A stretch of 64,000 nucleotides of DNA from Candidatus Iainarchaeum sp. (GCA_030649735.1 JAUSFL010000044.1:14038-78037); one strand, 5' to 3'. Numbered from the stretch's first letter, positions 21,853 to 38,532 are shown. Translations and numbers: made by a program. Notes: generated from the sequence alone by a model not told the origin.

Positions 21853-21903
21853 AAAAAAGGATTAGGCGCTGTTTTTTTAAATCCAAAAACACCTAATTAT
21901 ACC

Positions 21904-23766
21904 ATGCGCTTTGAGCTTGTCGCGGAGTATTTTGAAAAGATTGAGGGCGTGAGCTCTCGCTTGGAAATGACTGCAATCTTGCAGGAGTTCTTGCATAAGG
22001 TTCCTGCAAAAGAAATGAGGCGGGTCATTTACTTGTGCCAGGGAAGGCTTGCGCCTGCTTTTGAAAACTTGGAGATTGGAATGGGCGAAAAGTTCGTGAT
22101 GGAAGCCATTGCGAAAACTTCCGGCTTTGAAAGGAAGGAAGTCGAGAAAAAATTCAAGGAACTCGGCGATTTGGGGCTTGTGGCTGAAGAGTTTGCGAAA
22201 AAGAAAAGGCAAAAGGCATTGTACAGCGAAGAGCTTTCTTTGGACAAGGTTTTTGCAAACTTGAAGAAAATCGCGACTTCTTCAGGAACTGGAAGCCAGG
22301 ACTTGAAGATTAAATTGCTTTCTGAATTATTGAACAGCTCAAATTCTTTAGAGGCAAAGTTCATCACGCGCGTTCCAATTGGGAACTTGCGCTTGGGAGT
22401 CGGAGATCCCACAATAATGGACGCTTTTGCGTTAATGCTTTCTAAGGAATTCCGCAAGGAAAACCTAAAAGTTGTTGAAGAATTGGAGAAAGAGTTAAAA
22501 GAAAAAAAAGAGGAAAAGCGAAGCGAAGAGTTGGACAGGAAAGTAAAAGTGAAAATCCGCGAGCTGATTGAGGAAAAATACAACATTCACTCTGACCTTG
22601 GAAGCATTGCTGAAATCCTGAAAGAGCACGGGTTGAAGGGGCTGGAAAAGATTGAAATCACTCCGGGAATTCCATTGCGTCCGACTTTGGCTGAAAGGCT
22701 TTCAAGCGCCGAAGAAATAATTGAAAAGCTCGGAAAGTGCGCTGTGGAAGCAAAGTATGACGGCTTTAGATTGCAAATCCACAAGAAAGGAAATGAAGTG
22801 CATATTTTCAGCAGGCATTCTGAAAACATGACTGAAATGTTTCCGGACATTGTGAAAGCAGTCAGGGAAGAAATAAAGGCAAAGGACGCTATTTTTGAAG
22901 GAGAAGCCCTGGCTTACAATGAAACTGCTGAAGAATTTTATTCATTCCAGGTTACAATCCAGCGCAAGAGAAAATACGACATTCAGGAAAAAAGCCTGGA
23001 ATTTCCCTTGCGCTTGTTCTGCTTTGACCTAATGTTCCTTAATGGAAAAGACCTGATGCCATTGCCTTTCAAGGAAAGAAGGGAAAAGCTTGAGGAAGTC
23101 ATTGGAAAGGGAAAAATTGTTGAATTGACAAAAAGCATCATTACTGACTCTGCAAAAGAGCTGGAAAAATTCTTTGAACAGAATGTTTCCGCGGGCCTTG
23201 AAGGAATCATTGCAAAAGACTTGAACGCGAAGTACATTGCGGGCGCGAGAAAGTTTGCGTGGATAAAGCTCAAGCGCTCGTACAAGGGAGAATTGCAGGA
23301 CTCCCTGGACTGCGTGATTTTAGGATATTTTAAAGGCCGCGGGCAAAGGACAGAGTTTGGCCTCGGAGCTTTATTGACTGGAGTTTATGACGAGGCAAAA
23401 GACGAGTTTGCGACAATTGCAAAAGTGGGCACTGGAATGAGCGAGGACAAAATGGTAGAGCTTGAAAAAATGCTTTCAAAAATAAAGGAAAGGAAAAAGC
23501 CCGCGAGGGTTTTCAGCAACTTGGAGCCTGATGTTTGGGTAACGCCAATTCACGTGATTGAAATTCGCGCTGACGAAATCACAAAAAGCCCAGTGCACTC
23601 TTGCTCTTGGAATGGAAGTGAAGGCCTTGCTTTAAGGTTTCCGCGGCTTATTAGCATGCGAAGCGACAAGAAAGCGGAAGAGTGCTCTAGTGTTAAAGAA
23701 GTGAAGAAAATGTTTGAAAGCCAGAAAAAGCAAAAGACTTCATTTGGGGAAGGCGAGGAAAAATGA
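21904..23766 (+). CDS. lig: ATP-dependent DNA ligase
   Basis: Motif I EAKYDGFRLQ (adenylation Lys), OB domain, 620 aa. Confidence 0.9.
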   Translation: MRFELVAEYFEKIEGVSSRLEMTAILQEFLHKVPAKEMRRVIYLCQGRLAPAFENLEIGMGEKFVMEAIAKTSGFERKEVEKKFKELGDLGLVAEEFAKKKRQKALYSEELSLDKVFANLKKIATSSGTGSQDLKIKLLSELLNSSNSLEAKFITRVPIGNLRLGVGDPTIMDAFALMLSKEFRKENLKVVEELEKELKEKKEEKRSEELDRKVKVKIRELIEEKYNIHSDLGSIAEILKEHGLKGLEKIEITPGIPLRPTLAERLSSAEEIIEKLGKCAVEAKYDGFRLQIHKKGNEVHIFSRHSENMTEMFPDIVKAVREEIKAKDAIFEGEALAYNETAEEFYSFQVTIQRKRKYDIQEKSLEFPLRLFCFDLMFLNGKDLMPLPFKERREKLEEVIGKGKIVELTKSIITDSAKELEKFFEQNVSAGLEGIIAKDLNAKYIAGARKFAWIKLKRSYKGELQDSLDCVILGYFKGRGQRTEFGLGALLTGVYDEAKDEFATIAKVGTGMSEDKMVELEKMLSKIKERKKPARVFSNLEPDVWVTPIHVIEIRADEITKSPVHSCSWNGSEGLALRFPRLISMRSDKKAEECSSVKEVKKMFESQKKQKTSFGEGEEK

Positions 23767-24020
23767 AGGGCGGAAAGGCATTGGGCTTTGGCGCCAAAGT
23801 GATTGTTTTCCTCGCTGCTTTTGCAGTGGTAATAGTGTTCAATGCTTTCATTAGCCCGGAAATTTCCTCAAATGCTAGATTCTGGTTCAGGACAGGGGAT
23901 TACTTCAGCTTAATAATTGTCTTGGCCGAGACTTTCATCCTAGGCTCAATTTTCAGGGCATTGCTGATGTGGGCTTTCAAGATGCAGTTTGAAAGGAAAG
24001 AATTGAGGCGGTCAAAGTGA
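23763..24020 (+). CDS. Small membrane protein
   Basis: Two TM helices; overlaps the lig stop. Confidence 0.35.
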   Translation: MKGGKALGFGAKVIVFLAAFAVVIVFNAFISPEISSNARFWFRTGDYFSLIIVLAETFILGSIFRALLMWAFKMQFERKELRRSK

Positions 24021-25009
24021 GCGAGGGAAGCGGGGTTTTCGGCATCTTGATTGCGGCAATTGCTTTCATAATAGTTCTTTTTTTGGCTTACACTTACTTC
24101 CTGCCATTCCTTAATCCCCCAATAGACTTGAGCAAGGAAGTTAAAAACGGCTTTGCGATTTCACAGGCAAATGAAGGAAAAGTTTCTGAGGAAAAAAAGC
24201 TTTTCTTGAAGGCAAGCCAGTCAATTAACGCGAAAAACTTTGACGATTCTTCAACAATTGCCGTGCTTGAATGCAACAATCCTGCAATTTGCTGCATTGA
24301 TGAGGAAAACTGCAGCAGTGCATTAAGCATTAACACTGCATTCAGGGGCATTTTTGTGAAAAAAGACATTCTGACAAGCGTTTTTTACCGCTGCATGTTC
24401 GATCGCAAGGCTTTTGTCTGCAAGGCATTTTTTGGAGTCAAGCCAGCGCAAGTTGAAATTAAAAGCCTGAAAGTTCCCGCAACAATTGACCTGGGCAAAA
24501 ACAACGCTTTGGATTTAGAAATTAACATTCAAAATTCGGGCGCTCTTCCAAACAATGAGACAATGACTGCAATAGTGAAAGTTTTCAATGCTTCAGATAC
24601 CAATCCTTCAAAAGAGCCATTGCTTGAGGCAAGCCAGGAAATCGGGAAATTGCAGGCTGGAGAATCCAAAACCCAAAAAATGCAATTGCTGCTTTCAAGC
24701 CCTGGAAAGCTTGAAGTAAGAGTGAGTGTTTCTGGAGAGAATTCAGGAAGCGATTTGAAAAAAGCGATTGTTCAGGCTTCCGGAATTCCTGCAACAGGCT
24801 GTGCTGCTTTAGGCAGGCAGGCTCCAGAATTTTATTCAAGCAGCGGAAGCATTGAAGAACTGAAGGGAAAATGCGTTTCAAAGGCATTGTGCGGCAGTTG
24901 CAGTACTTCTTTTGAATGCAGGCAGGCCTGGCTTTCAAGGGAAGCAGTTGTTGTTTCAGCAAACAGCGATTACGCATACGTTGTATTGCAAGACAGCCAG
25001 TGCCAATAG
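24017..25009 (+). CDS. Cys-rich secreted/membrane-anchored hypothetical protein
   Basis: N-terminal TM anchor; many Cys in the extracellular portion. Confidence 0.4.
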   Translation: MSEGSGVFGILIAAIAFIIVLFLAYTYFLPFLNPPIDLSKEVKNGFAISQANEGKVSEEKKLFLKASQSINAKNFDDSSTIAVLECNNPAICCIDEENCSSALSINTAFRGIFVKKDILTSVFYRCMFDRKAFVCKAFFGVKPAQVEIKSLKVPATIDLGKNNALDLEINIQNSGALPNNETMTAIVKVFNASDTNPSKEPLLEASQEIGKLQAGESKTQKMQLLLSSPGKLEVRVSVSGENSGSDLKKAIVQASGIPATGCAALGRQAPEFYSSSGSIEELKGKCVSKALCGSCSTSFECRQAWLSREAVVVSANSDYAYVVLQDSQCQ

Positions 25010-25070
25010 GCAAATGACGAAAGCAATTAGCTTATATAATTTACGCCTAAGTCTTAGGTAAAGTGATTTC

Positions 25071-25496
25071 ATGATTGACTGGCAGCAATTTGACAAGGGA
25101 ATTTTTCTCGTTAATGTTCTGGGAATAATCTATGACAAGAAGTCAAAGAAAATCCTGATTGGAAAGAGGGAAAACGACCCTTTCACCAAGGAATTGGCCT
25201 GGTGCTTTCCTGGCGGAAGGCCGGCTTATGGAAAAAGCACTGGGGAAAGCCTTGTTGAAGAAGTCAGGAAAAAGACCGGCATTGAAGTGAAAGTGAAAAA
25301 GATTGTTTTCGCAAGGCCGTTTCCTGAAAAAAGGGAATTCTTGCTGCTTTATTATTACTGCGAATTCCGAAAAGGAACCGCAAAAGCGGGCGATAAAATC
25401 ACAGAATTAAAATGGGTCAGGCCTTCAGAAGTCAAAAAATACTTCACTACTTCAATAGCCGATGAAGTGCTTGATTTCTTGCAGAAATTAAAGTAA
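25071..25496 (+). CDS. Nudix-fold protein with degenerate Nudix box
   Basis: GGRPAYGKSTGESLVEEVRKKTGI aligns to the Nudix box, but REx2EE is replaced by EEVRKK. Confidence 0.55.
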   Translation: MIDWQQFDKGIFLVNVLGIIYDKKSKKILIGKRENDPFTKELAWCFPGGRPAYGKSTGESLVEEVRKKTGIEVKVKKIVFARPFPEKREFLLLYYYCEFRKGTAKAGDKITELKWVRPSEVKKYFTTSIADEVLDFLQKLK

Positions 25497-25560
25497 AATC
25501 GCGCTGCAGAATGCAATGCATATAAAAAGCATTTTCACTCTAGTCTAATTACTGAAGCTT

Positions 25561-26910
25561 ATGAGACTGCAAGAGTTTTTCCAAAAATTTGCGCTTTCCG
25601 AAGGAAACCAAGTCAGTGTCTTGACTAAAAAGCAGCAAATTTTGGAAGGAACGCTCATTCCGTCAAATGATGAAGGAATTCTGGCCTTGAAATTAAAGAA
25701 CGGTTATAATGCGGGCATTAAAGTTGAGGAAGTTTCTGAAATCAAGAAAATTTCTGAAGGCAAGACTGTCGGAAAGCCTCCAGTGAAAGAAATCCAGAAA
25801 GACTCAAAAAAGCCGACAATTGCAATACTGCACACTGGGGGAACAATTGCGAGCAGGGTTGATTACGCGACTGGCGCTGTTTACGCAAGCTTTAACGAAA
25901 AAGACCTTTTGACAATGTTTCCAGAGCTTTCGCAAAAGGCAAACATTGTTTCAGAGCACTTAAGCAACATGTGGAGCGATGACATGCGCTTTGCGCATTA
26001 TGCAAAAATGGCAAAGGCAATTGAAAAGCACGCAAGTTCTGGAGTTGCAGGAATAATTATTGGCCACGGCACTGACACTTTAGGATACAGCGCAGCTGCA
26101 TTGGCTTTCATGCTTGAAGGCTTGAATATTCCAGTGCTTTTGGTTGGAGCACAAAGAAGCTCTGACAGGGGCAGTTCTGACGCTGCAATGAATTTGGAAT
26201 GCGCTGCAGAATTTATTCTGAACTCTGACTTTGCTGGAGTTGCTGTTTGCATGCATGATTCTTCAAGCGATTCAAAATGCGCGATTCTTCCGGCCTGCAA
26301 AATGCGAAAATTGCATTCAAGCAGGCGCGACGCTTTCAAGGCAGTGAATGACACTCCAATAGCGCTCGTTGATTACAATTCCAAAAAAATAGATTTCTTG
26401 AAAGAGAATTTTGAAAGGAAAAGCAGCAAGAAAAAGCTTGTTGTTAAGGAAAAAATGGAAGATAAGGTTGCAATACTAAAAGTCCATACTAACATGAGCC
26501 CTGAGCAAGTCAGGTTTTTCGAAAAACAGGAATACAAAGGATTAGTGATTGAAGGAACTGGCCTTGGGCAAATGCCTGGATTTATTCCTGATGATTCCGC
26601 AATGGGAAACAAGGGAATTATTGAAGCAGTCGAATCATTGACAAAATCCGGCTGCGTTGTAGTAATGACTACCCAATGCATTTTTGGAAGAGTGCAAATG
26701 CATGTTTACGACAAGGGCGTGAAATTGATAAAAGTGGGAGTTATTCCGGGAGAAGACATGCTTGCTGAAACCGCGTTCGTGAAGCTTGCGTGGCTTTTGG
26801 GGCAGTATCCAAAAAGTCCTGAAAAAGTCAAAGAGCTAATGGTAAAAAACTTGCGCGGGGAAATAACTGAAAGGACAAATTTTGACGAAGACTTTGCAAA
26901 AGAGCTCTAA
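25561..26910 (+). CDS. gatD: Glu-tRNA(Gln) amidotransferase subunit D
   Basis: Asparaginase-type domain (ILHTGGTIAS, GHGTDT) with an N-terminal GatD extension. Confidence 0.9.
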   Translation: MRLQEFFQKFALSEGNQVSVLTKKQQILEGTLIPSNDEGILALKLKNGYNAGIKVEEVSEIKKISEGKTVGKPPVKEIQKDSKKPTIAILHTGGTIASRVDYATGAVYASFNEKDLLTMFPELSQKANIVSEHLSNMWSDDMRFAHYAKMAKAIEKHASSGVAGIIIGHGTDTLGYSAAALAFMLEGLNIPVLLVGAQRSSDRGSSDAAMNLECAAEFILNSDFAGVAVCMHDSSSDSKCAILPACKMRKLHSSRRDAFKAVNDTPIALVDYNSKKIDFLKENFERKSSKKKLVVKEKMEDKVAILKVHTNMSPEQVRFFEKQEYKGLVIEGTGLGQMPGFIPDDSAMGNKGIIEAVESLTKSGCVVVMTTQCIFGRVQMHVYDKGVKLIKVGVIPGEDMLAETAFVKLAWLLGQYPKSPEKVKELMVKNLRGEITERTNFDEDFAKEL

Positions 26911-26921
26911 AACTTTAGAAA

Positions 26922-27356
26922 TTGAAAGTTTGCGTGGGAAAATTAATGGATAATTTTCGGGTTGCTGTAAAAGCATTGATTTTGGACGACGAAAACAATT
27001 TGCTGCTTGTCAGGCGAAGCCATGATGACAAAGTGGCCGCCGGGCTTTGGGAAATTCCTGGCGGAAGGCTGGAGCTTGGCGAAAGCCCTTTTGATGGATT
27101 AAAGAGAGAAGTGATGGAAGAAACTGGAATTCCAATAGATATTGGGGCTCCAGTAAACGTGCAGCATTTCACAAACACGGACAAGGTTGTAATAACAATG
27201 ATTATTTTCAAATGCAAGGCGCTTTCAAAGGAAGTAAAGCTTGTTGACGGAGAGCTTTCAGAATTTGGCTGGGTGAAAATTCCTGAAGCAAAAGCCAAAA
27301 TTACAAAATACTTCCATAAGGAAATAGATATTCTGGAAAAAATGGCTGGTGTTTAG
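26922..27356 (+). CDS. Nudix hydrolase
   Basis: Canonical Nudix box GGRLELGESPFDGLKREVMEETGI. Start may be the ATG at 26946. Confidence 0.8.
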   Translation: MKVCVGKLMDNFRVAVKALILDDENNLLLVRRSHDDKVAAGLWEIPGGRLELGESPFDGLKREVMEETGIPIDIGAPVNVQHFTNTDKVVITMIIFKCKALSKEVKLVDGELSEFGWVKIPEAKAKITKYFHKEIDILEKMAGV

Positions 27357-27358
27357 AA

Positions 27359-29248
27359 ATGCCGAAACTAAAATGCGGGATTGAAGTGCACCAGCAGCTT
27401 GATACTGGAAAATTGTTCTGCCGCTGCCCGAGCTTTTTGCGCGATGACAAGCCAGAATTCACTGTTGAAAGAAAGCTTCGTGCTGTTGCATCTGAAATGG
27501 GCGAATTTGACGCTGCAGCCTTGGAAGCAATGCAAAAGAATTATACGTTTGTTTATGAAGGACACCACGAAAACGCATGCCTAACGGACATTGACGAATC
27601 CCCGCCAATGCCAGTTGATAAAGAAGCCTTGAGAATAGTCCTAGAAGTTGCATTGCTTGCAAAATCAACAGTGCTTGACAAGGTTTTTGTAATGCGAAAG
27701 GCAGTTGTTGACGGAAGCAACACTTCAGGCTTCCAAAGAACAGCGCTTGTCAGTACTGGCGGAAGCCTGAAAATCAATGAAAAAAAAAGCGTGGGCATTC
27801 AGACAATTGCGTTGGAAGAGGACGCTTGCAGGCCTTCAAAGAAAGACGAGGAAAACAAGAGAATTTACTACCGTCTGGACAGGCTGGGAATTCCATTGAT
27901 TGAGCTTGCGACAGCGCCAGACATTGAAACTCCAGAAGAGGCAAAAGAGACTGCATTGGCCATTGGAAAATTATTGAGGATTACTTGCAAGGCAATGAGG
28001 GGCTTGGGGACAATAAGGCAGGACTTGAACATCAGCATTGAAGGCGGAGCAAGAATTGAAATCAAGGGCTGCCAGGATTTGGAAATGCTTGAAGAGCTTG
28101 TAAGGCGGGAAATGCAAAGGCAGGAAAAGCTTTTGGAATTGAAGAAAATTCTTTCTTCAAAAGCAAAGCCCGAAGATTTTGGAAAATTCGAGATTTTAGA
28201 GCTTTCGGAATTTTTCAAGAATTCTGAAAACAAGCTAGTGAAGGGAAAAAAGATTTTTGGGGCAAGAATTCCAAAAATGAAAGGACTGCTTGGAATTGAA
28301 TTACAGCCCGGAAGACGGTTTGGAAGCGAATTGTCAGACCAAGTGAAGGCAAAGGCAGGCTTGAAGGGATTATTGCACAGCGACGAGCTGCCGAATTATG
28401 GAATTACTGAAGCAGAGAAGAGTCGCATTGCAGGCAAGCTTGATATTCCTCTTGACGATATACTGCTCCCTTATGGCGACGCTTTCATTCTAGTGATTGC
28501 AGAAAAAGAAGCAGCGGAGAAAGCATTCAAAGCAATCAGCGCAAGGATTTTGCAGGCTTTCAAAGGAGTTCCTGAAGAAACCCGCAATGCTTTAGAGAAC
28601 GGAAACACTGAATATTCGCGCCCTTTGCCCGGAGCTGCTAGAATGTATCCTGAAACCGACATTGCTTCTTTTGAAACTTCAGAAAAAGAACTCAGCGAGT
28701 TGGAGAAAGAGCTGCCTTTATGGCCGCAAGAACGCGTGAGGCTTTACACTGAAAAATTCGGGGTTTCAAGACAGCTTGCAGAAAAGATGTCATTGGACAA
28801 TTACGCAATCTTTTTTGAAAGCCTTGCGAAAAAAGGCTTTGATGCAACGCAAGCCGCTGTTTTGCTTTTGGAGGGATTGACTCAGCTTTCAAGGGAAGGA
28901 ATCAATGTTGAAAAATTTACGGAGCAACAGATTGAAGAATCATTGCAGCTTTTGAAAGATAAAAAACTGACCAAAGAGACAGTTCTTGAATTCTTGAAAT
29001 TACGGAGCAAAAATCAGTTCAAACTTGCAGCGGAATTGCTAAAAGAGTTAGGCACTACAAGTGTTTCAGAAAAAGAAGTGCAAAAAACAATTGCCGCAAT
29101 TGTTGCAAAAAGCTCTGCGCTCATTAAGGAAAAAGGCGACCGGGCAATTTCAGCATTGATGGGTGAGGCAATGAAAGAACTGAAAGGAAAAACTGACGGG
29201 GCAACAATCTCGCGAATTCTAAAAGAAGAAATTGCAAAGCTCAAATAA
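27359..29248 (+). CDS. gatE: Glu-tRNA(Gln) amidotransferase subunit E
   Basis: N-terminal KCGIEVHQQLDTGKLFCRC, AspRS-like insertion, C-terminal GatB/YqeY tail. Contains an in-frame copy of the dispersed 16-mer at 29045-29060. Confidence 0.9.
   Translation: MPKLKCGIEVHQQLDTGKLFCRCPSFLRDDKPEFTVERKLRAVASEMGEFDAAALEAMQKNYTFVYEGHHENACLTDIDESPPMPVDKEALRIVLEVALLAKSTVLDKVFVMRKAVVDGSNTSGFQRTALVSTGGSLKINEKKSVGIQTIALEEDACRPSKKDEENKRIYYRLDRLGIPLIELATAPDIETPEEAKETALAIGKLLRITCKAMRGLGTIRQDLNISIEGGARIEIKGCQDLEMLEELVRREMQRQEKLLELKKILSSKAKPEDFGKFEILELSEFFKNSENKLVKGKKIFGARIPKMKGLLGIELQPGRRFGSELSDQVKAKAGLKGLLHSDELPNYGITEAEKSRIAGKLDIPLDDILLPYGDAFILVIAEKEAAEKAFKAISARILQAFKGVPEETRNALENGNTEYSRPLPGAARMYPETDIASFETSEKELSELEKELPLWPQERVRLYTEKFGVSRQLAEKMSLDNYAIFFESLAKKGFDATQAAVLLLEGLTQLSREGINVEKFTEQQIEESLQLLKDKKLTKETVLEFLKLRSKNQFKLAAELLKELGTTSVSEKEVQKTIAAIVAKSSALIKEKGDRAISALMGEAMKELKGKTDGATISRILKEEIAKLK
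29048..29059 (+). repeat. Dispersed element copy inside gatE, in frame (LGTT)
   Basis: Exact 12-mer within the 16-mer GAGTTAGGCACTACAA. Confidence 0.8.
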
Positions 29249-29255
29249 AAAAGAA

Positions 29256-29266
29256 TTAGGCACTAC
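29256..29266 (+). repeat. Dispersed element copy (11/12) just after the gatE stop
   Basis: GAATTAGGCACTACTG. Confidence 0.7.
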
Positions 29267-29280
29267 TGAGTTGAAAAACA

Positions 29281-29943
29281 ATGAAGCATTTTCCAATAGC
29301 TAAAGAATTGCATACTGATGTTCTGGCTCAAAAGTACGGGCAAATTTCAGCAAAAGTATTAAGGCATGATGAAAAAGCAAGGGAAGCGCACTTGATTGAT
29401 TCTAATGGAATTTCAAGAACTTTTGCAATAACGCTCTTTCCCAAAAGCATTCCCAAGCAAATCAAAAAGATTAATGAACAAATAAAGAATGGCAGTCCAA
29501 TTGGCGAAACTTTCAGGCAGAACGGCTTTGAAGTCAGAAAGAATGTTTTAAGCGTTAACATACTTCAAATTCCAAAATGGCTAAAGAATGATTTTAGAAC
29601 TGGAAAAGCAAGTGCAAAATACAGGATTTCTGAATTTTACGCAAAAAGCCAAAAATCAAAGCCAGTAATTTATGGGACAGTCATTGAAATTTACTCCCCG
29701 GACTTTAGGGAAGCCAAAATAAACCAAATTGACTTGATTCAATTAAGTGCTCCAACAGAAGCATTGAAAAAAGCAGGGTTTTCAATGCAGGAAATCTGGG
29801 AAAAAATCGGCGATGCTTCATTAAAATCCCAGCAAGCACTGAGAGAAAAAGCCAACCCAAAAGCCGGAAAACTAGTCAGAGAAATGGAAAATGAAATAAT
29901 GGATATTTTATCACTGCCTCACCAAAGCATTAGAAAGAGTTAG
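29281..29943 (+). CDS. Hypothetical protein (cassette-like ORF bounded by two direct copies of the dispersed element)
   Basis: 220-aa ORF; copies at 29256 and 29940, the latter providing its stop codon. Confidence 0.5.
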   Translation: MKHFPIAKELHTDVLAQKYGQISAKVLRHDEKAREAHLIDSNGISRTFAITLFPKSIPKQIKKINEQIKNGSPIGETFRQNGFEVRKNVLSVNILQIPKWLKNDFRTGKASAKYRISEFYAKSQKSKPVIYGTVIEIYSPDFREAKINQIDLIQLSAPTEALKKAGFSMQEIWEKIGDASLKSQQALREKANPKAGKLVREMENEIMDILSLPHQSIRKS

Positions 29944-29949
29944 GCACTA
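29940..29949 (+). repeat. Dispersed element copy (10/12) supplying the TAG stop of ORF 29281-29943
   Basis: AAAGAGTTAGGCACTAT; the stop codon TAG is at 29941-29943. Confidence 0.7.
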
Positions 29950-29969
29950 TTTTTTTAGAAATCAAGAGC

Positions 29970-30407
29970 TTACACAAATGCGGAAATCAAAACAATCAAA
30001 TACCACAAAGCCAAGTTTGTAATGCTTAGCATGCCTAATTGCTTTTTTGCTTTAAAGAATTCTTCAGAAGGCTTTTCGCCGGGCTTTGCAAGCTTTTGCA
30101 TTTTTTTAACCCTTAAAAAAATCAAGGCTCCAATTGCAACTATCAAAACCACCAAAGCATGCTTTATTAGTAGTAAATTCGTGTCAAGCGGCCATTTTAC
30201 AAGGCTTGTTACTGCAATTCCGGAAATTATGAGCAAAACCAAGCCAGCCCAGATTAGTTTTGACAGCGCGGGAATTATTTTCATCAAGCTTGCGGCAACT
30301 TCCGGATTTTTCTCCGCCTTCATTGAAATAATTGCGGCTGCTGTTGCTCCGCCAACTCCCCAGGCCAATCCAATAAAGTGCAGAAAATTGAAAATTTCTA
30401 AAAGCAT
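29970..30407 (-). CDS. Four-TM membrane protein
   Basis: Hydrophobic helices throughout. Confidence 0.45.
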   Translation of the reverse strand: MLLEIFNFLHFIGLAWGVGGATAAAIISMKAEKNPEVAASLMKIIPALSKLIWAGLVLLIISGIAVTSLVKWPLDTNLLLIKHALVVLIVAIGALIFLRVKKMQKLAKPGEKPSEEFFKAKKQLGMLSITNLALWYLIVLISAFV

Positions 30408-30525
30408 GCTTTGATTAAAAGCGCTTTAGTTTTTAATTTTTCCTGCCAAAAAGCCCGAAAAAGCGGGATAAAAAGAAAATAAAATGAAAAGCCGCAAAAA
30501 ACGGCTTTTCAAAAACTGGTTCAAA

Positions 30526-31002
30526 TCATTTTTTCTTGAACACGTTCAAGGCAAGGAATGCTCCAATAACTCCCAAGATTGCGCCAATTATTATTGCCAC
30601 AATTATGCCGATTATTAGGCCGACTATTCCAATTGCAGCTCCAAGGCCTGCAGCTGCTGGGTTTGAGCCAATGCCTGCCGAAATCAATGGCGCAACAAGC
30701 AATAACTGCAAAATTCCGCCAATAATTCCGGAAATTACTGCAACAACTGCTCCTGCAACAGCTCCTGAAACATATGCTTCAGCGGCTGGCGCTTTCTTTG
30801 CGGCTTCAAGGCCTGCCCAAATTACAACTACCCAAATCAGCAATCCAATAAGTCCTGCCAATCCAATCGAGCCAACTGCGGCAAGCGGGTTTCCTCCAGC
30901 GCCAGCCCAGGCAGCGTAAGTAATTGCAATCACGACTAATTCCAAAACAATGGCCAGTATTATTTGAGTTTTAACCGCCATTGCTGTTTTCATTATATCC
31001 AT
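30526..31002 (-). CDS. Gly/Ala-rich polytopic membrane protein
   Basis: AxxxG/GxxxG-rich TM segments. Confidence 0.45.
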   Translation of the reverse strand: MDIMKTAMAVKTQIILAIVLELVVIAITYAAWAGAGGNPLAAVGSIGLAGLIGLLIWVVVIWAGLEAAKKAPAAEAYVSGAVAGAVVAVISGIIGGILQLLLVAPLISAGIGSNPAAAGLGAAIGIVGLIIGIIVAIIIGAILGVIGAFLALNVFKKK

Positions 31003-31132
31003 TAAAATAATCCCTCCATTAATGTAATAGAAATAAACAACGAGCCCGGCTTAATAAAACTTTGCGGGTTAAAAAACAAGGGTTTTTTTCAATATTTTAA
31101 ACCATTCTGCCGGCCATTCTCAGTTATCAAAT

Positions 31133-31215
31133 ATTCAAAATTACGGAGCAAAAACTCTTTCAAACTTGCAGCGGAAATTCTAAAAGAGTTAGGCACTACA
31201 ATTGTTTCAGAAAAA
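31133..31215 (+). repeat. Decayed duplicate (~85% identity by eye) of gatE internal segment 28996-29078, centred on the dispersed element
   Basis: Window: ATTACGGAGCAAAAACTCTTTCAAACTTGCAGCGGAAATTCTAAAAGAGTTAGGCACTACAATTGTTTCAGAAAAAAAG. gatE: ATTACGGAGCAAAAATCAGTTCAAACTTGCAGCGGAATTGCTAAAAGAGTTAGGCACTACAAGTGTTTCAGAAAAAGAAG. Confidence 0.75.
31189..31200 (+). repeat. Dispersed element copy within a decayed duplicate of the gatE internal segment
   Basis: Exact 12-mer; flanks match gatE 28996-29078. Confidence 0.8.
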
Positions 31216-31223
31216 AAGCCAAA

Positions 31224-31565
31224 TTATAAGAATTTTACAAACTTGTTGTTTTCATTGACTAAAATCTTTTTTGCTTTCACTGGCTTGCTTGAAAGCTCAA
31301 AGCCCATTATTATCACGCGTTCTCCGGCTTTTATCAAGTGCGCTGCAGCTCCATTAATGCAAACAATTCCCGAACCTTCATTTCCGGGCATTATGTAAGT
31401 TTCAAGCCTTACCCCAGAACTCTTGCTAACAACCAGTGCTTTCTCCCCACTCAAGAAACCGGCTTTTTTCATAAGGGCAGAGTCAATGGTAATGCTTCCC
31501 TCATACTCTACATTAGCTTCTGTTACAGTCGCATCATGAATTTTAGACCTTAGCACCCAGCGCAT
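31224..31565 (-). CDS. panD: Aspartate 1-decarboxylase, pyruvoyl-dependent (bacterial type)
   Basis: Self-processing site EYEGSITID (Gly-Ser), KIHDATVT, INGAAAH; 113 aa. Confidence 0.82.
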   Translation of the reverse strand: MRWVLRSKIHDATVTEANVEYEGSITIDSALMKKAGFLSGEKALVVSKSSGVRLETYIMPGNEGSGIVCINGAAAHLIKAGERVIIMGFELSSKPVKAKKILVNENNKFVKFL

Positions 31566-31631
31566 TCCAAAACACCAATTATTTTCTTAAAGTATTTTGT
31601 TGCAATTAGTATTTAAGAATTTAAGTAAAAG

Positions 31632-31643
31632 TTAGGCACTACA
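31632..31643 (+). repeat. Dispersed element copy supplying the (minus-strand) TAG stop of ORF 31639-32826
   Basis: AAAGTTAGGCACTACAAA; the minus-strand stop is the reverse complement of CTA at 31639-31641. Confidence 0.8.
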
Positions 31644-32826
31644 AATTTGAAATTTTAACTACTCCCCATTCAAGAATTTCTCGCGAATCATAATATAGTG
31701 GTTTCCTACCATAATAAATCCAACCAGTTATTTTGTAAATGTGGTTTTTTGGAAGCCGCAGTTTTTCAAGTATTCTATCTGCGCTCAATCCAGTACTTCG
31801 TAATTGAATAGTTTTTTCATAAGTTTCCCATTCTTTCTTTAATCCACTGGAGTTTTTTAGAAATGTTTCAACTGCCTTAACAAATTTGGCTTGCTTTTTC
31901 TCCGCATATTTGAAAGGAATTTCCTGAAATAATTTGACAATATTTGGGCTTCGTCCATCAATATAGAATGAGATTTTCTGTGAAAGAGTTCCATCCTTTC
32001 TTAATGTCCTATTTTTCTCTCCAGCAATTGGTGAAGAAGTAACTCCAAACTCAGCCAACAAGGATTTTACTTGTTCATGAAATTTTATTAGCTCATTTAC
32101 CTTTGACTCAACTTTATGCAATCCAAAAGTTGCAGAAGTAAATGCATTCTTTGCTCTAATAAAAGGGCATTGCAACTCGTTGCCAAAAAGAACACTCAGA
32201 AAAGCGCGTTTTATCTCCTTATCAGAATTCATTACCCAATCAGGAACTTTTGTTGAAGAAGAAACTTTATCCCCAACAGGAGCGCCCGCCAAGAATAATA
32301 ATCTTGCAAGCGGAGAACTATTAACATTTAAACGATAATCACCCCCTTTTGGATAAGTTCGATATAGTACCCTATTTTTTATTTTTCTTATTTCTGACTC
32401 CGAAGAATTAATTGCCAAATGCGGTTCGATTTTGTATTGCTTGAACAATAATGATGCAATCAACTCCAAGTCTTCTTTCTCGCCAAAAAGGGAAAAGGCG
32501 CCCAAATGTTTCATTAAATGGCCATCACCAAATAGAAATGCAGATAGCTCTGTAAAAAGAAGAAAACTTTGAGTATCTTCTACTTTTAATGGAATCAATC
32601 TAATTGACTTAAGATAATTCAAGGCTCTAATTGGAAAAGGCACTCTTTTGTCAGATAACCAACTGTATATTGTCCTTTCAGGATGCTTTATCAAGCGCGA
32701 TATTTCAGAAATAGTCTTTATTGAATTTTGCAATTCTTTAGCTTGAATATACTTTTCTGCCAGGTTTAATTGCCGGTCTCCAAAAGAAGCAAGAAATTTA
32801 TTCTCATCAACAATTATTTCTTCCAT
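31639..32826 (-). CDS. Free-standing LAGLIDADG-like (double-motif) homing-endonuclease-like protein with N-terminal HTH
   Basis: LSAFLFGDGHL and a second degenerate KRAFLSVLFGNEL motif ~130 aa later; N-terminal HTH-like segment. The stop codon lies inside a dispersed element copy. Confidence 0.4.
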   Translation of the reverse strand: MEEIIVDENKFLASFGDRQLNLAEKYIQAKELQNSIKTISEISRLIKHPERTIYSWLSDKRVPFPIRALNYLKSIRLIPLKVEDTQSFLLFTELSAFLFGDGHLMKHLGAFSLFGEKEDLELIASLLFKQYKIEPHLAINSSESEIRKIKNRVLYRTYPKGGDYRLNVNSSPLARLLFLAGAPVGDKVSSSTKVPDWVMNSDKEIKRAFLSVLFGNELQCPFIRAKNAFTSATFGLHKVESKVNELIKFHEQVKSLLAEFGVTSSPIAGEKNRTLRKDGTLSQKISFYIDGRSPNIVKLFQEIPFKYAEKKQAKFVKAVETFLKNSSGLKKEWETYEKTIQLRSTGLSADRILEKLRLPKNHIYKITGWIYYGRKPLYYDSREILEWGVVKISNL

Positions 32827-32885
32827 TAATAACTTCTAATTTAATTATTTAAGAACACTGGGGAGCCAAAGCGCCAGTCGTAAAA

Positions 32886-33101
32886 TCAAACCATTTTGCC
32901 TGCAAGCCTTTTTGCAACACGCCTGCATTTCGTGTGAAAGTATTGTCCCATCCACTTAACGTCTGTCGGGCCTTTTCCGCAAATCGCGCAGGTTTCGCTG
33001 AATTTTCCCGAGTTTTGGCTTTCTGAAGCCCCAGAATTTTTTTGCAATGGAGCCGCAGAATTTTCTTCTGGCTTTTTTCTGAAACCGTCCAATAATCCCA
33101 T
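32886..33101 (-). CDS. Small zinc-ribbon protein
   Basis: CAICG...HTKC. Confidence 0.35.
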   Translation of the reverse strand: MGLLDGFRKKPEENSAAPLQKNSGASESQNSGKFSETCAICGKGPTDVKWMGQYFHTKCRRVAKRLAGKMV

Positions 33102-33155
33102 TAATGCACCTTTTACAAAAAGATTAAACCTGCAAAGTTATTAAATATTGCTTGA

Positions 33156-34085
33156 ATGCTTGATACTTGCATGATTCCCGAAAGGCTCAAGGCTGGCGAC
33201 TGCATTGGAATAATATCTCCATCCGGCGCTATGGAGAAAGAAAGAATGGGCCAGTTTGAGCATGGCAGGGCTTTTTTTGAAAAGCATGAATTCAAAGTAA
33301 TTTTGGCAAAAAACGCGCTAAGCAATTCTCTGGGCTATTCTGCAAGCCCTGCTGAAAAGGCAGAAGACTTGAACAGCATGTTCAAAGACAATTCAATAAA
33401 GGCCATTATTTGCTCGCAGGGCGGCCAGAATTCCAATTCTATTCTTCCATTGCTTGATTTTAAATCAATTGCAAAAAACCCAAAGATTTTCCTTGGAATA
33501 AGTGACATTACAGTATTATTGAACGCAATTTACTCAAGGACCGGGCTTGTCACATTTCACGGTAATGACTTGGTGTGGGGTTTTGGAAGAAACCCGACTG
33601 CTTATGACATCCTGGAATTTGATGATAGGCTGGTTGGAGGAAAAACAGGCCTAATTACCAAGAATTCAGAATGGATTTGCGTCAGGGAAGGAAATGCAAA
33701 AGGAGTATTGATTGGCGGGAGCATAAATTGCATGAACAAGCTTGTGGGTACAAAATTCGCGCCTGATTTTAAGGGCAAAATCTTGTTTTTGGAGTCTTAT
33801 GGGGAAGGAAGAACTGCAGATGAGCTTGACGGCCAGATACAAAGACTAAAGCAGTCGGGGGCTTTCGAGAAAATCAAGGGATTATGGCTTGGCTATTATA
33901 AATCAAAAGACAATTTTGCAATTGAAACAGTAGTGCAAAACTCCCTTAAAGAATTTGATTTTCCAATATTAAAGTGCAATGACTTTGGACATAATACTCC
34001 AAACACTACAATTCCAATTGGGGTAAAAGCAGAACTTGATGCTGATAAAAGAACTTTGGAAATCTTGGAAAAGTGCGTGAAATAA
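33156..34085 (+). CDS. LD-carboxypeptidase (peptidase S66, LdcA/MccF-like)
   Basis: GISDITVLLNA (catalytic-Ser GxSDxT motif) and two-domain S66 architecture. Confidence 0.78.
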   Translation: MLDTCMIPERLKAGDCIGIISPSGAMEKERMGQFEHGRAFFEKHEFKVILAKNALSNSLGYSASPAEKAEDLNSMFKDNSIKAIICSQGGQNSNSILPLLDFKSIAKNPKIFLGISDITVLLNAIYSRTGLVTFHGNDLVWGFGRNPTAYDILEFDDRLVGGKTGLITKNSEWICVREGNAKGVLIGGSINCMNKLVGTKFAPDFKGKILFLESYGEGRTADELDGQIQRLKQSGAFEKIKGLWLGYYKSKDNFAIETVVQNSLKEFDFPILKCNDFGHNTPNTTIPIGVKAELDADKRTLEILEKCVK

Positions 34086-34106
34086 TTCACCATTTTTGCT
34101 TTTTTG

Positions 34107-35192
34107 TCATGAATTCCTGACATACTCCAACGACAAAATGCCGTTAAGTTTTGGGGTTTCTGGATTCCTAATATTTTCCCCTTTAGGCGTATCAGTGCTA
34201 CCCTTCAGCACATCTCTGTCTGTGCTGAATCGAGATATGCCTTGGCGATACAAACTTGCAATATTGAATCCTGCGTTTGCATCGGCATTCTCAACCACCC
34301 CACATTTCGTGCAGTGGAATTCTTTTAGTTTTCTGTTCCTTGCTTCTATATGACCGCACTTACTACACCTTTGCGAAGTATATTGCGGTTCAACATAGGC
34401 AACAGGCACTCCGAACTTTTTGGATTTGTATTCTATCATTTTTTGCAACTGATAAAAACTCCAAGAGTTTATGGAATACCTCTGCTTTCTTCTCATTTTT
34501 GTAGTCTTTCGAATATCTTTCAATTCTTCAAGTACTATAATTGCTTTGCTATTTTGTGCTTCATCAATCAATTTCTTGCTTATCTGGTGATTAATATTCC
34601 TAATGATTCTGCTCTCTCTATCTTTGATTTTCTTAACAAGAGAATGCTTGCCATTCTTTTGAAGTGACCGTCTTATGTTTTTATATTTTGTGTGAATATG
34701 ATTGCACTTCTTACCTAGCTTAAGCACTTTTCCAGTATCAATATTTGAAGCTACAAGGACATGCTTAATTGTATTTCTATCCACACCAATCACTTGCTTT
34801 GGTTTGTATTGACAAGGTTCTTCGTATGAATATGACACATAAGCAAAAGTCTCCCCAATTTCAACTTGGTTTATCTTCTTAAATGAAATATTAAAGCGAA
34901 TTGGAAGTGTTAATTTCAGACAAGGTATTATTATCTCTTTTTTTGTGAATCTAATTCCTTGAGAAGGAACAGTCAGTTTTACTGAATTTACAGTTTTGAT
35001 TGTTTTATTTTTGGCATACTTTCGGAGGATTTGGTTGGCAATCACTGATTTCAAGCCAATATGTTTTACATCTTTGCTTGATAATGTTCTCTCTCTTATT
35101 GCATACTCAGCTATTTTCTTTGCCAAGCTAAGTTCTCTGCTAAAGTTCTGATAATGCTTTATTTTGAGAGTCAATATCAAAAAAGACCACAA
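34107..35192 (-). CDS. tnpB: TnpB (IS200/IS605 OrfB-family), solitary
   Basis: RuvC-I IGVDRN, E in IVLEELK, zinc finger CSKCGH...CTKCG. Only 21 nt separate its stop from the convergent ldcA stop. Confidence 0.85.
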   Translation of the reverse strand: MWSFLILTLKIKHYQNFSRELSLAKKIAEYAIRERTLSSKDVKHIGLKSVIANQILRKYAKNKTIKTVNSVKLTVPSQGIRFTKKEIIIPCLKLTLPIRFNISFKKINQVEIGETFAYVSYSYEEPCQYKPKQVIGVDRNTIKHVLVASNIDTGKVLKLGKKCNHIHTKYKNIRRSLQKNGKHSLVKKIKDRESRIIRNINHQISKKLIDEAQNSKAIIVLEELKDIRKTTKMRRKQRYSINSWSFYQLQKMIEYKSKKFGVPVAYVEPQYTSQRCSKCGHIEARNRKLKEFHCTKCGVVENADANAGFNIASLYRQGISRFSTDRDVLKGSTDTPKGENIRNPETPKLNGILSLEYVRNS

Positions 35193-35301
35193 AATAACTT
35201 GGCCTTTGATGTTTATAAGTGGTTGGAGACGCTAGATTTCCACTCGTTGCAATCCCCTCCGCGCTAGAACGAAACAAAGATTGTTGGGGCTAGCTCTAAA
35301 A

Positions 35302-36099
35302 CTACCAGTTTACTCTTTTACTCATAAATTCATAAAACAAGTAAATTTGGGCAAAGCCTTTATACTCGTGCCATAATTCTTCTGCTTTTTGCAAGTACTG
35401 GTCGTTTTTTGCTTCTTTTCCTTGAAAGTAAACTTTGCTCATTGCGCGCTTCATCCAAACATCCAATGGAAATCCATTAGTGTCGCCAAAGCCATAAAGC
35501 AGAATGCATTCTGCAATTTTTTCTCCAATGCCTGGGCAGGAAAGCAGGAATTCTTTCAGTTCTGCAGAGTTCTTGAATTTCAAATCTCCCCTTTGCAAGA
35601 CCTTCAGTGTAGTGCCTAACAAGTACTGGTCGCGAAAACCGCACTTTACTTTTCGAAAATCCTGCACTGTGCATTTTGCAAAGTCTTCAGGCATTGGAAA
35701 TTCATGCAGGCCTTCCACTTTTGCCCCGTAAGCATTCATTAATTCCTGCACGTTCATTCTGATTATTGGAATGCTCCTGTTCGAGCTTAGCAGGAAGCAG
35801 ACTATTGTTTCCCACAAGTCGCTTTGCGTCAAGCGCAGGCCTTTGTAATCCTTGACTGCCTGCTTCATGAAAGAGTCTGTTGAAATTTTCGCAAAAACCA
35901 TTTTGTAATTGTCATTGCTCCGTAAAGTGAACTCTGCAAACTTTGCATTATTGGTTTTCAGTTTTCCTTGCTCTTGCATTAACTCGACAATTTTTCCATT
36001 CCGGGCCCTTTTGAAAACTCCGCGGTCTTCCTGCCAGACAAACTGTGGAGTTTGCCCTGAAAGCATTGTCAAACCAAGATTCAATGACTTTGGCAGCAT
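35302..36099 (-). CDS. HhH-GPD DNA glycosylase (Ogg/AlkA-like)
   Basis: LLSCPGIGEKIAECILLYGFGDTNGFPLDVW HhH-GPD motif. Start uncertain (36099 or 36066); the ORF track extends to 36201, overlapping the divergent DJ-1 gene. Confidence 0.7.
   Translation of the reverse strand: MLPKSLNLGLTMLSGQTPQFVWQEDRGVFKRARNGKIVELMQEQGKLKTNNAKFAEFTLRSNDNYKMVFAKISTDSFMKQAVKDYKGLRLTQSDLWETIVCFLLSSNRSIPIIRMNVQELMNAYGAKVEGLHEFPMPEDFAKCTVQDFRKVKCGFRDQYLLGTTLKVLQRGDLKFKNSAELKEFLLSCPGIGEKIAECILLYGFGDTNGFPLDVWMKRAMSKVYFQGKEAKNDQYLQKAEELWHEYKGFAQIYLFYEFMSKRVNW
35608..35619 (-). repeat. Dispersed element copy (reverse) inside the ogg-family gene, in frame on the minus strand (LGTT)
   Basis: TGTAGTGCCTAA exact. Confidence 0.8.
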
Positions 36100-37063: not shown

Positions 37064-37116
37064 AAAAACTTGTTTTTTAACAGTTTCCTTCCACTATTTT
37101 TTTGAAAAGAACCGCT

Positions 37117-37189
37117 AGCCCCGTAGTATAGTGGCCAAGTATGCCGGGCTTTGAACCCGTTGACGGGAGTCCGAATCTCCCCGGGGCTA
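37117..37189 (+). tRNA. tRNA-Gln (anticodon UUG)
   Basis: Acceptor AGCCCCG/CGGGGCT, anticodon loop CTTTGAA, T arm GGGAG-TCCGAAT-CTCCC, discriminator A, no encoded CCA. Confidence 0.8.
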
Positions 37190-37253
37190 TTAGCCAAAAG
37201 TTAGTAGCCTCTTTCCTCGTTTCTTTTAAAGTCCGAGGAAGGAGGTTATTAAC

Positions 37254-38525
37254 ATGGAAGAAAACGTTTTCGACCCGCATGGTTTGACCAAGCGAATGGA
37301 AGCAGAATTACGAAAGATTTCCTTGCTTCCAGAACCCAATAAATCTCTAATTCTGGATTTTTTGCACAATTACAGGTACAAAAAGAAGTCTTTGAGCTTG
37401 GCCAGGCGTTGTCGTTTGGCAAGCCAGTTTCACTTTTTTGCCAAGCTTTCAGGAAAGCCTTTGAATCCTTTTAGAGAACAGGATGCTCGAAGCTTGGTTG
37501 GCTTGATTGAAAGGTATGAGAATTCTCGAAAGCCTTATTCTTTGCATACTTGGAAAGAAATCGTAAAGAATGTTAAGATTTGGGTTAAATGGGTTAATCC
37601 TGAAGACTACCCTAACGTTTTGTTGAAGTGTAAAGATGTTTTAACAGTCCAAAACCCTTACTCAGACCCTAAAAGAAAAGCCAGTCTTGAGGATTTCTTG
37701 ATTACTGACGAAACCTTCCTGAAGCTTTTGAATGTAGCCAAAGACCAACAAAAAGCCATTCTAGCCATTGGATTTGGCTGCGGTTCAAGAACTGGAGAGC
37801 TCTTGGGTTTGCGTAGAAAAGACTTGAAATTCAATCCTGACGGAACAATATCGCTTTCTTTTCTTGAAAGCAAAACTTTTCCCCGAGAAAATATTTTATT
37901 AAGTCCAGACTTATCCTGTTACGTGCGAGAATGATTTGAAAAAAGCCCGTTGAAAAGCCAGAATGACTTCTTTTTCTGCACTGTCAACGGCCCGCCAAAA
38001 CCACTATCTCAAAACGCTCTTGGAATAATCCTAAAACGCCTGGCTGTCAAAGCCGGCTTAGGAAAATGGAAGAAAGTCAAGTCAAGCAATGGCATTTGGT
38101 ATTCTCACTATCAAGGCCAAAGAATCTATTTCACTAAATTCCGGCGTTCTGCAGCAACTTGGGCTTTAAAAAACTTGAAAAGCCACGCCTTAGCTGGCAA
38201 AAGAATCTGGGGTAACGAAGCTTCAAGCATGATTAAAATTTACTCTGGATTAGTTTCTGAAGACGCTAACGAAGCTTACAGGGAAGCTTTAGGTTTAGCA
38301 CAACCAACTCAAGTCGAAAACATTCTGAAGCCTAAAACCTGCTTCAAATGCCATACAATGCTTTCTCCAACTCAAAGCCTTTGCCCAAACTGTAAAATAG
38401 AAACAGACACTTCAAAATTAATAGATACTCAATTACTGAAAGAAGCAGAAATGACAGCCTTAAGGGAAGAAATGAAAATGCTCCAAACAGCACTAGCGCA
38501 AATAACCCTAAAAATGCAAAGTTAG
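37254..38525 (+). pseudogene. int: Tyrosine recombinase/integrase interrupted by one in-frame TGA (37932-37934); N- and C-parts in the same frame
   Basis: Core-binding N-domain; catalytic box GCGSRTGELLGLRRKDL (Arg) upstream of the stop; KFRRSAATW and KIYSG (Tyr) downstream. Junction reads YVRE*FEKSPLKSQ; the stop is a single transition from TGG (Trp). Strong SD AGGAGGT 8 nt upstream. Confidence 0.75.
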
Positions 38526-38532
38526 GCACTAC
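38522..38532 (+). repeat. Dispersed element copy (11/12) supplying the TAG stop of the integrase
   Basis: CAAAGTTAGGCACTACG; the stop codon is at 38523-38525. Confidence 0.7.

Follow-up and report, generated by a model that had tools for sequence, protein, structure and literature searches.

Short DNA sequences that recur at the borders of genes are known from several kinds of genetic system. In integron arrays, which have been reported in archaeal metagenome-assembled genomes (MAGs), short direct sites lie between small, mostly unrelated genes, and the gene content differs among relatives. Elements that accrete in tandem at gene 3′ ends, as at tRNA and tmRNA genes, leave displaced partial copies of the target gene downstream of the intact one. 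The DNA uptake sequences (DUS) of Neisseria, the uptake signal sequences (USS) of Pasteurellaceae, and Chi are sharp words of 10–12 nt that occur far above chance, use permissive coding frames, and are found near gene 3′ ends and in resident phages; to our knowledge, no uptake-type or Chi-like signal has been described in Archaea. Repetitive extragenic palindromic (REP) sequences and bacterial interspersed mosaic elements (BIME) are short dispersed repeats at gene 3′ ends and between convergent genes, and the start-associated sequences of Cluster K mycobacteriophages and the lambdoid boundary/linker sequences are short asymmetric motifs repeated on the coding strand at gene borders. Here, we describe a 12-mer word, GTTAGGCACTAC, and a variable gene slot framed by two of its copies, in a 64-kb piece of chromosome from a MAG of Candidatus Diapherotrites (Iainarchaeota, DPANN), Candidatus Iainarchaeum sp. 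(GCA_030649735.1 JAUSFL010000044.1:14038-78037; the whole stretch is hereafter called the window). The slot lies between gatE and a converging gene, ORF395, for a free-standing LAGLIDADG homing-endonuclease-like protein. The motif itself is a more surprising result than the slot, the same word being found in archaeal genomes of diverse kinds, in their integrative elements, and in a tailed virus.

The gene order ligase–o330–gatD–gatE … ORF395–o71–S66 peptidase–OGG is common to the window and locus L362, and partly to L267 (L-numbers denote loci and contigs of relatives compared with the window, L267 and L362 being those of its sister genomes). GatE and ORF395 of the window are 72% and 61% identical to their counterparts in L267. 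In both sisters, one copy of the word (A1) lies on the gatE side and another (A2) overlaps the stop codon of ORF395; the two are spaced by 33 nt in L267 and 31 nt in L362 versus 2364 nt in the window. By blastn, window positions 29174–29266 correspond to L267 1689–1599 and positions 31630–33147 to L267 1566–42, i.e., homology stops at the last base of A1 (29266) and restarts one base ahead of A2 (31630). Because the breakpoints fall at the motif edges, the block formed by ORF220, by DUF2269, TM158 and a gatE pseudo-fragment, and by panD represents an insertion or a spacer replacement exactly between conserved copies, and further copies of the word lie at each internal segment border of the block. 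The features of the slot and its flanks are as follows, in window coordinates:

27359–29248, plus strand: gatE, 629 aa, conserved left flank (Pfam GatB_N/GAD/GatB_Yqey)
28980–29074, plus strand: gatE-internal segment with motif B, CGGAGCA (29003), and the word, or motif A (29047–29058); source or counterpart of 31121–31215
29047–29058, plus strand: fifth direct copy of the word, within gatE and read as LGTT, just beyond the interval of the initial annotation
29255–29266, plus strand: copy A1, ATTAGGCACTAC, 6 nt past the gatE stop; orthologous to L267 1610–1599 and L362 3642–3631
29267–31630, no strand: 2364-nt insert in place of the 31–33-nt A1–A2 spacer of the sisters (blastn breakpoints)
29281–29943, plus strand: ORF220, conserved hypothetical protein of 220 aa, segment 1; its TAG stop lies within the copy at 29939
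29939–29950, plus strand: copy A″, GTTAGGCACTAT (motif scan)
29970–30407, minus strand: DUF2269 integral membrane protein, segment 2 (PF10027, E 1.9e-8)
30526–31002, minus strand: TM158, hydrophobic protein of 158 aa, segment 2 (from the translation; without a family match)
31121–31215, plus strand: gatE pseudo-fragment of 95 nt with motif B (31144) and motif A (31188–31199)
31188–31199, plus strand: exact copy of the word in the gatE pseudo-fragment
31224–31565, minus strand: PanD, pyruvoyl-dependent aspartate decarboxylase, segment 3 (PF02261, E 2e-36)
31631–31642, plus strand: copy A2, exact, holding the ORF395 stop codon; orthologous to L267 1565–1554 and L362 3599–3588
31639–32826, minus strand: ORF395, free-standing LAGLIDADG homing-endonuclease-like protein, 395 aa, conserved right flank
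32886–33101, minus strand: o71, zinc-ribbon-like protein, 71 aa, which directly follows gatE in L004

The interval between gatE and ORF395 is a hypervariable accessory-gene slot in Diapherotrites. In L267 it is occupied by ORF245 together with a gatE 3′ fragment that has been displaced, and in L362 by NUDIX; L363–L365 and L367 have genes for PGI, glycerate kinase, ROK kinase, RpiA, AIRS or NosD there, and in L004 it is empty, with gatE abutting o71. The insert of the window lies between conserved word copies, and the two direct copies A1 and A2 frame the slot in the subclade that includes this genome. In the sisters, the A1–A2 spacer holds a second short motif, GCGGAGCAAGG or ACGGGGCAAGG. The more distant relatives with other genes in the gatE–ORF395 interval lack the word. 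The initial annotation had listed the contents of the interval as a 220-aa ORF, two small membrane proteins, a gatE fragment, and a bacterial-type panD, all of which are present, and had named four direct copies of the motif, which are there on the plus strand, one base left of the starts that it gave. It had also proposed to look for gain or loss at motif sites across relatives, and the comparison was positive, with spacers of 31–33 nt and of 2364 nt and with breakpoints at motif edges; conservation of the whole block in distant relatives, named there as the outcome that would speak for fixed ancestral sequence, was not seen.

The window carries gatD/gatE and the ATP-dependent ligase. GatE has its best matches, with 58% identity, in Iainarchaeum MAGs, and proteins of the window are named Q7R70_06320 and Q7R70_06340 in the source. 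An independent Logan assembly, SRR13727527, is identical to the window across positions 19904–35538 (15.6 kb), so the arrangement is not a one-off misassembly. An adapter or assembly artefact as the origin of the word was likewise rejected, since copies stand at orthologous positions in independent assemblies. In L366 (ENA scaffold_3543), which holds the closest relative of ORF395 (63% identity), the contig breaks inside ORF395 next to the start of the slot, which fits strain heterogeneity or repeats at the locus.

Eight exact copies of the word occur in the window, and a search for GTTAGGCACTAC at up to two mismatches gave 15 window matches against 1.31 expected, a number reached by none of 100 shuffles. 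All four copies of the interval lie within 25 nt of a stop codon or supply one; the stops supplied by the word are the TAG of ORF220, the TAG of a tyrosine integrase, and the reverse-strand TAG of ORF395. Outside the slot, the window contains these copies and the element that carries several of them:

5476–5487, plus strand: copy within an RNase HII-like gene, read as LGTT and followed by ATG
8700–8711, minus strand: intergenic copy 33 nt upstream of the GTG start of a tatD-like ORF
35609–35620, minus strand: copy in the gene for the OGG glycosylase (LGTT frame), with counterparts at this position in L362 and L366
37176–50197, no strand (region 37116–50197): element integrated at tRNA-Gln, with a 17-bp direct repeat, TCTCCCCGGGGCTATTA, at 37176 and 50181; genes at its right end match PHROGs
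37254–38525, plus strand: tyrosine integrase beside tRNA-Gln, with an in-frame TGA at 37932–37934 (phrog_1 integrase match)
38521–38532, plus strand: copy supplying the integrase stop codon (TAG)
48035–48702, minus strand: four direct copies in a 1.2-kb non-coding region of the tRNA-Gln element

The 12-mer is not specific to this genome and is also found in many others. A metagenome scan with ANAGTTAGGCACTACAA gave at least 120 loci with GC contents of 0.28–0.60, and among the matches listed at least 51 loci had two or more copies. Counts were made on a 772-kb set composed of the window, a tailed virus, and these motif-selected metagenome loci (GC 0.28–0.60), and because the loci were selected for the word, all statistics on them are conditional on that choice. 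The set holds 220 exact 12-mers against 0.09 expected. One-mismatch variants number 37, with 25 of the mismatches at position 1 and 12 elsewhere, and two-mismatch variants occur at chance level. The real core is an unusually sharp 11-mer, TTAGGCACTAC, with the 12-mer form (G)TTAGGCACTAC. It is usually preceded by A-rich sequence and followed by A, and past the 12-mer no position beyond +1 (A or G) is conserved. Several motif loci carry archaeal markers (Nre, class I LysRS, TFE-alpha, and an MCM-winged-helix primase). The word is absent from the more distant Diapherotrites loci L002–L009 (about 112 kb), L363–L365, L367 and L368, and its distribution is therefore patchy, with an identical sequence across very different genomes.

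Copies within 300 nt of each other are mostly direct (48 direct, 7 inverted), with tandem periods of 13–17 nt and about 44 nt. Intergenic copies account for 46% and lie mostly near gene 3′ ends: 26 stand between convergent versus 11 between divergent genes, and the neighbouring gene is no more than 30 nt away in 48 of about 129 cases on the gene-3′ side versus 14 of 83 on the gene-5′ side. Two frames of the word are open (LGTT and VRHY), and the other four contain stop codons. Within ORFs, the LGTT frame dominates (66 vs 24), and the ratio of sense to antisense copies, 63:24, is near the 2:1 expected from stop codons alone and therefore points to a constraint at the DNA rather than the RNA level. 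An RNA-level element was rejected on this ratio together with empty Rfam searches, and we know of no complementarity of the word to rRNA or tRNA. A start-associated or translation signal, suggested by ATGs just after several viral copies, was rejected as well, only about 16% of the 220 copies having an ATG within 12 nt. In the literature that we searched, there was no description of the word, and only primers and a promoter table of coliphage ECBP5 carry the sequence. We conclude that the word is widespread, acts at the level of DNA sequence with sharp conservation, and is associated with mobile elements. One tandem pair with a 13-nt period (L241 13057–13082) stands between an Orc1/Cdc6-like AAA gene and an archaeal Nre gene, and this pair is conserved in three related contigs, L241, L340 and L342 (GC 0.53–0.54).

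The word is also maintained inside host genes: gatE, OGG, RNase HII and enolase have copies that were embedded in frame, by substitution, in variable loops. The OGG-internal copy is common to the window, L362 and L366, and a copy in an enolase loop (KLGTT) to five related archaeal contigs with a GC content of about 0.53. The copies are placed at about codon 30 of enolase, in mid-gene in OGG, and 190 nt (63 codons) before the stop of gatE. The gatE-internal word sits in a variable linker without an indel relative to GatE homologues; in the gatE genes of the window, L267 and L362, only CGGAGCA and AGTTAGGCACTACAA..TTTTCAGAAA are identical, and the 35 nt in between have diverged. CGGAGCA lies 44 nt upstream of the word in gatE and is conserved in the three genomes. 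Together, the word and motif B form units of about 44 nt, A-N6-GCGGAGCAA-N18. This second short motif, GCGGAGCA(A), is 16-fold enriched near the word, and the regions concerned are L334 774–1090, L355 4546–4623, L267 1554–1610, L362 3588–3642, and window positions 29003 and 31144.

The gatE pseudo-fragment at 31121–31215 is 85% identical to the gatE-internal segment at 28980–29074 and 71% identical to gatE of L267, which has its own displaced gatE 3′ fragment at 1689–1599; in both genomes the fragment adjoins a copy of the word. Direct repeats built of target-gene sequence (28980–29074 and 31121–31215) thus bracket a stretch of DNA in which there are only ORF220, DUF2269 and TM158, with no integrase or other mobility gene. 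The arrangement resembles tandem accretion at gene 3′ ends in its displaced target-gene partials downstream of the intact gene (gatE′ in the window, gatE″ in L267), in the integrase-bearing element nearby, and in the presence of a true tRNA-Gln element with 17-bp att repeats in the same window. It differs in that the block has no integrase, the fragments are short (66–95 nt) and diverged (65–85% identity), and, in place of an att sequence particular to one gene, a universal 12-mer recurs.

The initial annotation was right that a tyrosine recombinase 5.6 kb away ends in a copy of the motif, its TAG lying in the copy at 38521–38532. This window integrase has no PF00589 match at E ≤ 0.01, and its use of the word as att was rejected, since the att site is the 3′ end of tRNA-Gln. 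A possible decayed copy, gccAAAAGTTAGtAgCCtC, stands right after tRNA-Gln/attL (37190–37215). The cargo of the element includes two paralogous radical-SAM/SPASM genes, an aminotransferase, an inositol monophosphatase, a CDP-alcohol phosphatidyltransferase, PEMT, and ADH. A related element, L355, shares 75–77% nucleotide identity with it over 1.1 kb and also has an array of motifs A and B; no breakpoints bounded by the word were found between the two.

The density of the word is higher in the tailed virus IMGVR_UViG_3300009320_000030 (45,496 nt, with a 119-nt overlap of contig ends; loci L057, L018, L128, L030, L216 and L234), which encodes TerL, a portal protein, an HK97-type capsid and two ParB-like proteins. 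Its 19 exact copies share one orientation, that of the coding strand, and stand at module borders. One perfect copy abuts a tRNA 3′ fragment (ggttcgaaccctgccggttccaaaGTTAGGCACTAC). The viral tyrosine integrase aligns colinearly with that of the window (25% identity over 388 aa, E 1e-20), and the C-terminal zinc ribbon is part of the match, and the virus-type integrase is also found in L321, L328 and L341. In a viral ORF of 1374 aa (positions 11796–15920 of the reverse complement), seven in-frame copies join modules that, from reading sequence motifs only, appear to be PAPS-reductase-like, ATP-dependent DNA ligase-like, and, in two cases, LigD phosphoesterase-like. The copies read (K/E)LGTT, two of them are tandem pairs, and some modules start with Met right after the motif. 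A further association was found for fam2, a 113-aa gene with the pattern MAYVRKK.VKG..YYQLVES.RV.GKPRQRV..., which in five contigs with differing neighbours (L245, L324, L271, L344 and L270) has inverted motif pairs (A(-)-N13-A(+)) on either side. In at least three of them, L270, L245 and L324, the next gene downstream is a tyrosine integrase of a second type (e.g., L270 5515–7113). The fam2 gene has 118 homologues, one of them labelled Rubrobacter, nearly all on contigs shorter than 5 kb, as is the case for repeated elements. No Pfam or NCBIfam family match and no HUH/Y1 motifs were found in fam2, which is a candidate for a protein that binds the motif or for a factor resembling an excisionase, and which may span domains. 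The fam2 N-terminus may recall IS1634 transposase or the arm-binding domains of lambda Int, and the word lambda arm-type sites, with Pfam and NCBIfam tests negative.

Inverted copies around fam2 recall RAYT (REP-associated tyrosine transposase) genes flanked by REP sequences, and the word shares with REP and BIME repeats their dispersal, their place at gene 3′ ends and between convergent genes, and a reverse complement that begins with GTAG. In contrast to these repeats, single words in the archaeal genomes are not palindromic and the window copies have no hairpins, and fam2 has neither the HUH/Y1 motifs nor the family match. The asymmetric motif on the coding strand at the gene borders of a tailed virus is likewise reminiscent of the Cluster K and lambdoid sequences, from which the word differs in the small share of copies with an ATG close by and in being shared with host chromosomes across lineages.

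ORF220, described as an orphan in the initial annotation, has 128 homologues with 40–58% identity in DPANN archaea and some Candidate Phyla Radiation (CPR) bacteria, several of which adjoin gatD, gatB, LeuRS or PheRS genes, and the word is absent from five loci with such homologues. The LAGLIDADG-like assignment of ORF395 is borne out by the alignment of residues 65–357 to the endonuclease part of the rpS12 intein, with both LAGLIDADG motifs aligned (30% identity, E 2e-28); the protein gave no Pfam LAGLIDADG match (sub-threshold Pirin_C only) and no PDB sequence match at E ≤ 0.7. It has about 25 orthologues in Diapherotrites. ORF395 was rejected as the enzyme of the word, since conservation of the gene in relatives that lack the motif speaks against a dedicated link.

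Our tentative preference, held at somewhat less than even confidence, is that DNA segments recombine at the word, a putative recognition sequence with a link to mobile elements. A DNA-binding or recombination function carried along by such elements would recognize it, and segments bearing it would be joined, swapped or lost by recombination at or beside the words, either through site-specific recombination by some enzyme or through recombination assisted by short homology. Serial events of this kind could leave direct arrays and displaced gatE fragments, the latter being the kind of remnant that successive integrations into a gene 3′ end leave behind. With two open frames and four stop frames, the word can sit in gene linkers or end genes, which would allow it to persist at gene or domain borders. 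A bolder version, which we consider doubtful, would make the word the universal joint of an undescribed, integron-independent gene- and domain-shuffling system of DPANN and other archaea, tailed viruses and integrative elements, read through as Leu-Gly-Thr-Thr or as a stop, in which genes and modules would move between virus and chromosome by recombination, and host genes would acquire perfect copies through repeated integration and excision at sites that nearly match.

Several observations weigh against recombination at the word. The copies in gatE, OGG and enolase came about by substitution, and four related genomes have kept them, as if they served the host and were not scars of recombination; the metagenome loci, moreover, were chosen for carrying the word. 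No enzyme has been demonstrated to act on it, and the single word has no dyad symmetry, unlike the core sites of tyrosine and serine recombinases. The A1–A2 spacer was replaced, whereas simple insertion of a circle at one site would keep it, and the breakpoints at the motif edges could reflect the last conserved elements beside an ordinary hot spot between two conserved genes. Finally, homologues of ORF220 elsewhere often adjoin tRNA-charging genes without the word, so that function, and not a cassette-like origin, may account for its place after gatE.

The main rival, which seems to us possible though rather unlikely, is that of a genome-wide "self" word of the DUS/USS or Chi type, with a role in uptake, repair or nuclease attenuation, that is kept by selection or drive at about one copy per 7 kb and is copied by resident viruses and plasmids; the slot would then have arisen by ordinary homologous or illegitimate recombination, and words would stand at its borders through their habit of lying at gene 3′ ends. 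The sharpness of the motif with almost no degenerate copies would be expected of such a word, as would its in-frame substitution copies in variable loops, the copy positions conserved across four Diapherotrites genomes and five archaeal contigs with a GC content of about 0.53, the sense-to-antisense ratio close to that set by stop codons, and the preference of intergenic copies for gene 3′ ends and convergent pairs. Over-representation of the exact word, including in permissive coding frames, was found on 64 kb of genome and motif-selected loci, and the greater density on one strand only of the virus is seen for Chi in some phages. However, the same 12-mer is found at GC contents from 0.28 to 0.60, in archaea (DPANN and others), and is absent from closer Diapherotrites relatives, for which horizontal spread is a better fit than a host-lineage signal. 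Moreover, the direct arrays with periods of 13–17 nt and about 44 nt are atypical of DUS, USS and Chi and are not the inverted terminator pairs known from uptake sequences, integrase genes recur in the motif-selected loci, and neither competence genes nor a RecBCD/AddAB-like uptake or nuclease partner were identified. The gene-end habit could also reflect punctuation by a DNA-binding protein that blocks or insulates transcription at the word, as a roadblock in the manner of mTERF or of TTF-I at Sal boxes, so that the array would consist of short genes each with a terminator box. The stop-proximal position of all interval copies, the excess of close 3′-side neighbours and the resemblance of direct arrays past genes to Sal-box arrays would suit this explanation, which we nevertheless judge improbable given the conserved copies in the middle or early part of essential genes (enolase, OGG and gatE), the lack of an orientation rule relative to the neighbouring gene, the absence of a T-run after the motif, and tandem copies directly upstream of start codons.

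Two further explanations fare much worse against the preferred one of recombination at a mobile-element word. The integron-like reading of the initial annotation stands as far as the layout of short direct sites and small genes and the gene content between conserved flanks, which varies among relatives, are concerned, and in nothing else. GTTAGGC in the word also happens to fit GTTRRRY, the core pattern of integron sites. The absence of attC-like hairpins noted earlier was confirmed: DNA folds of 100 nt at the four copies, on both strands, were less structured than shuffles (z +0.43 to +1.44), and there are therefore no attC-like sites. No IntI, attI or Pc was found at the locus, and the sole integrase, 5.6 kb away, belongs to the separate tRNA-Gln element, has an in-frame stop, and is without a PF00589 match. 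The genes lie on both strands, and the site has only 12 nt, is identical everywhere, and recurs in housekeeping genes, across a virus genome and in many unrelated genomes, as no integron site does. The locus fails the defining tests and is not an integron, and a true integron or an attC × attI cassette platform is extremely unlikely. For a phage-type single-subunit RNA polymerase (RNAP), the promoter of coliphage ECBP5 is listed as TAGGCACTACAATA (PMC11617373). The ECBP5 genome (L235, KJ749827) has four exact and six near copies of tTAGGCACTACAATAGG, all on the coding strand, and the 19 co-oriented viral copies, several right before an ATG, could be viewed as promoters of the same kind. Yet no T7-like RNAP was seen in the virus, the window or the 120 metagenome loci, among the matches listed; tblastn with the ECBP5 RNAP gave nothing better than E 0.79 in the window, virus and metagenome loci; Pfam and PHROG scans of the viral ORFs tested gave none; and the virus has no right-sized ORF lacking another assignment. 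The AATA at −4 to −1 of the ECBP5 promoter is not conserved at the word, and host copies lie on both strands relative to genes and also within housekeeping genes. As no carrier examined has the polymerase, the promoter explanation fails and is in our view very unlikely, and the 11-nt identity between word and promoter, real and striking, is probably a coincidence.

DPANN genomes are very small, and little is understood of the ways in which they gain genes; the locus offers a concrete, testable case. If the word does promote recombination, viruses and hosts, and also different lineages, would have in it a new means of exchange; should it be a signal of the uptake or Chi type, it would be of the kind that, as stated above, we do not know to have been described in Archaea. 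Either way, it offers a simple computational means of assigning archaeal viruses and plasmids that have not been cultivated to their hosts.

Two TnpB (IS605 OrfB/Cas12f-like) genes are also present in the window, at 34107–35192 on the minus strand and 3804–4979 on the plus strand. A link of TnpB/IS605 to the word was rejected, as the word has no consistent position relative to the tnpB genes. Compared with L362, in which the genes for S66 peptidase and OGG are neighbours, the first of them is inserted. Its stop codon is separated by only 21 nt from the stop of the converging S66 peptidase ORF, and any omega-RNA or right end would therefore overlap the S66 gene. Near the right end of the window, a 139-nt direct repeat (62738–62876 and 63857–63995) has 74% identity between its two copies, which lie 1.1 kb apart.

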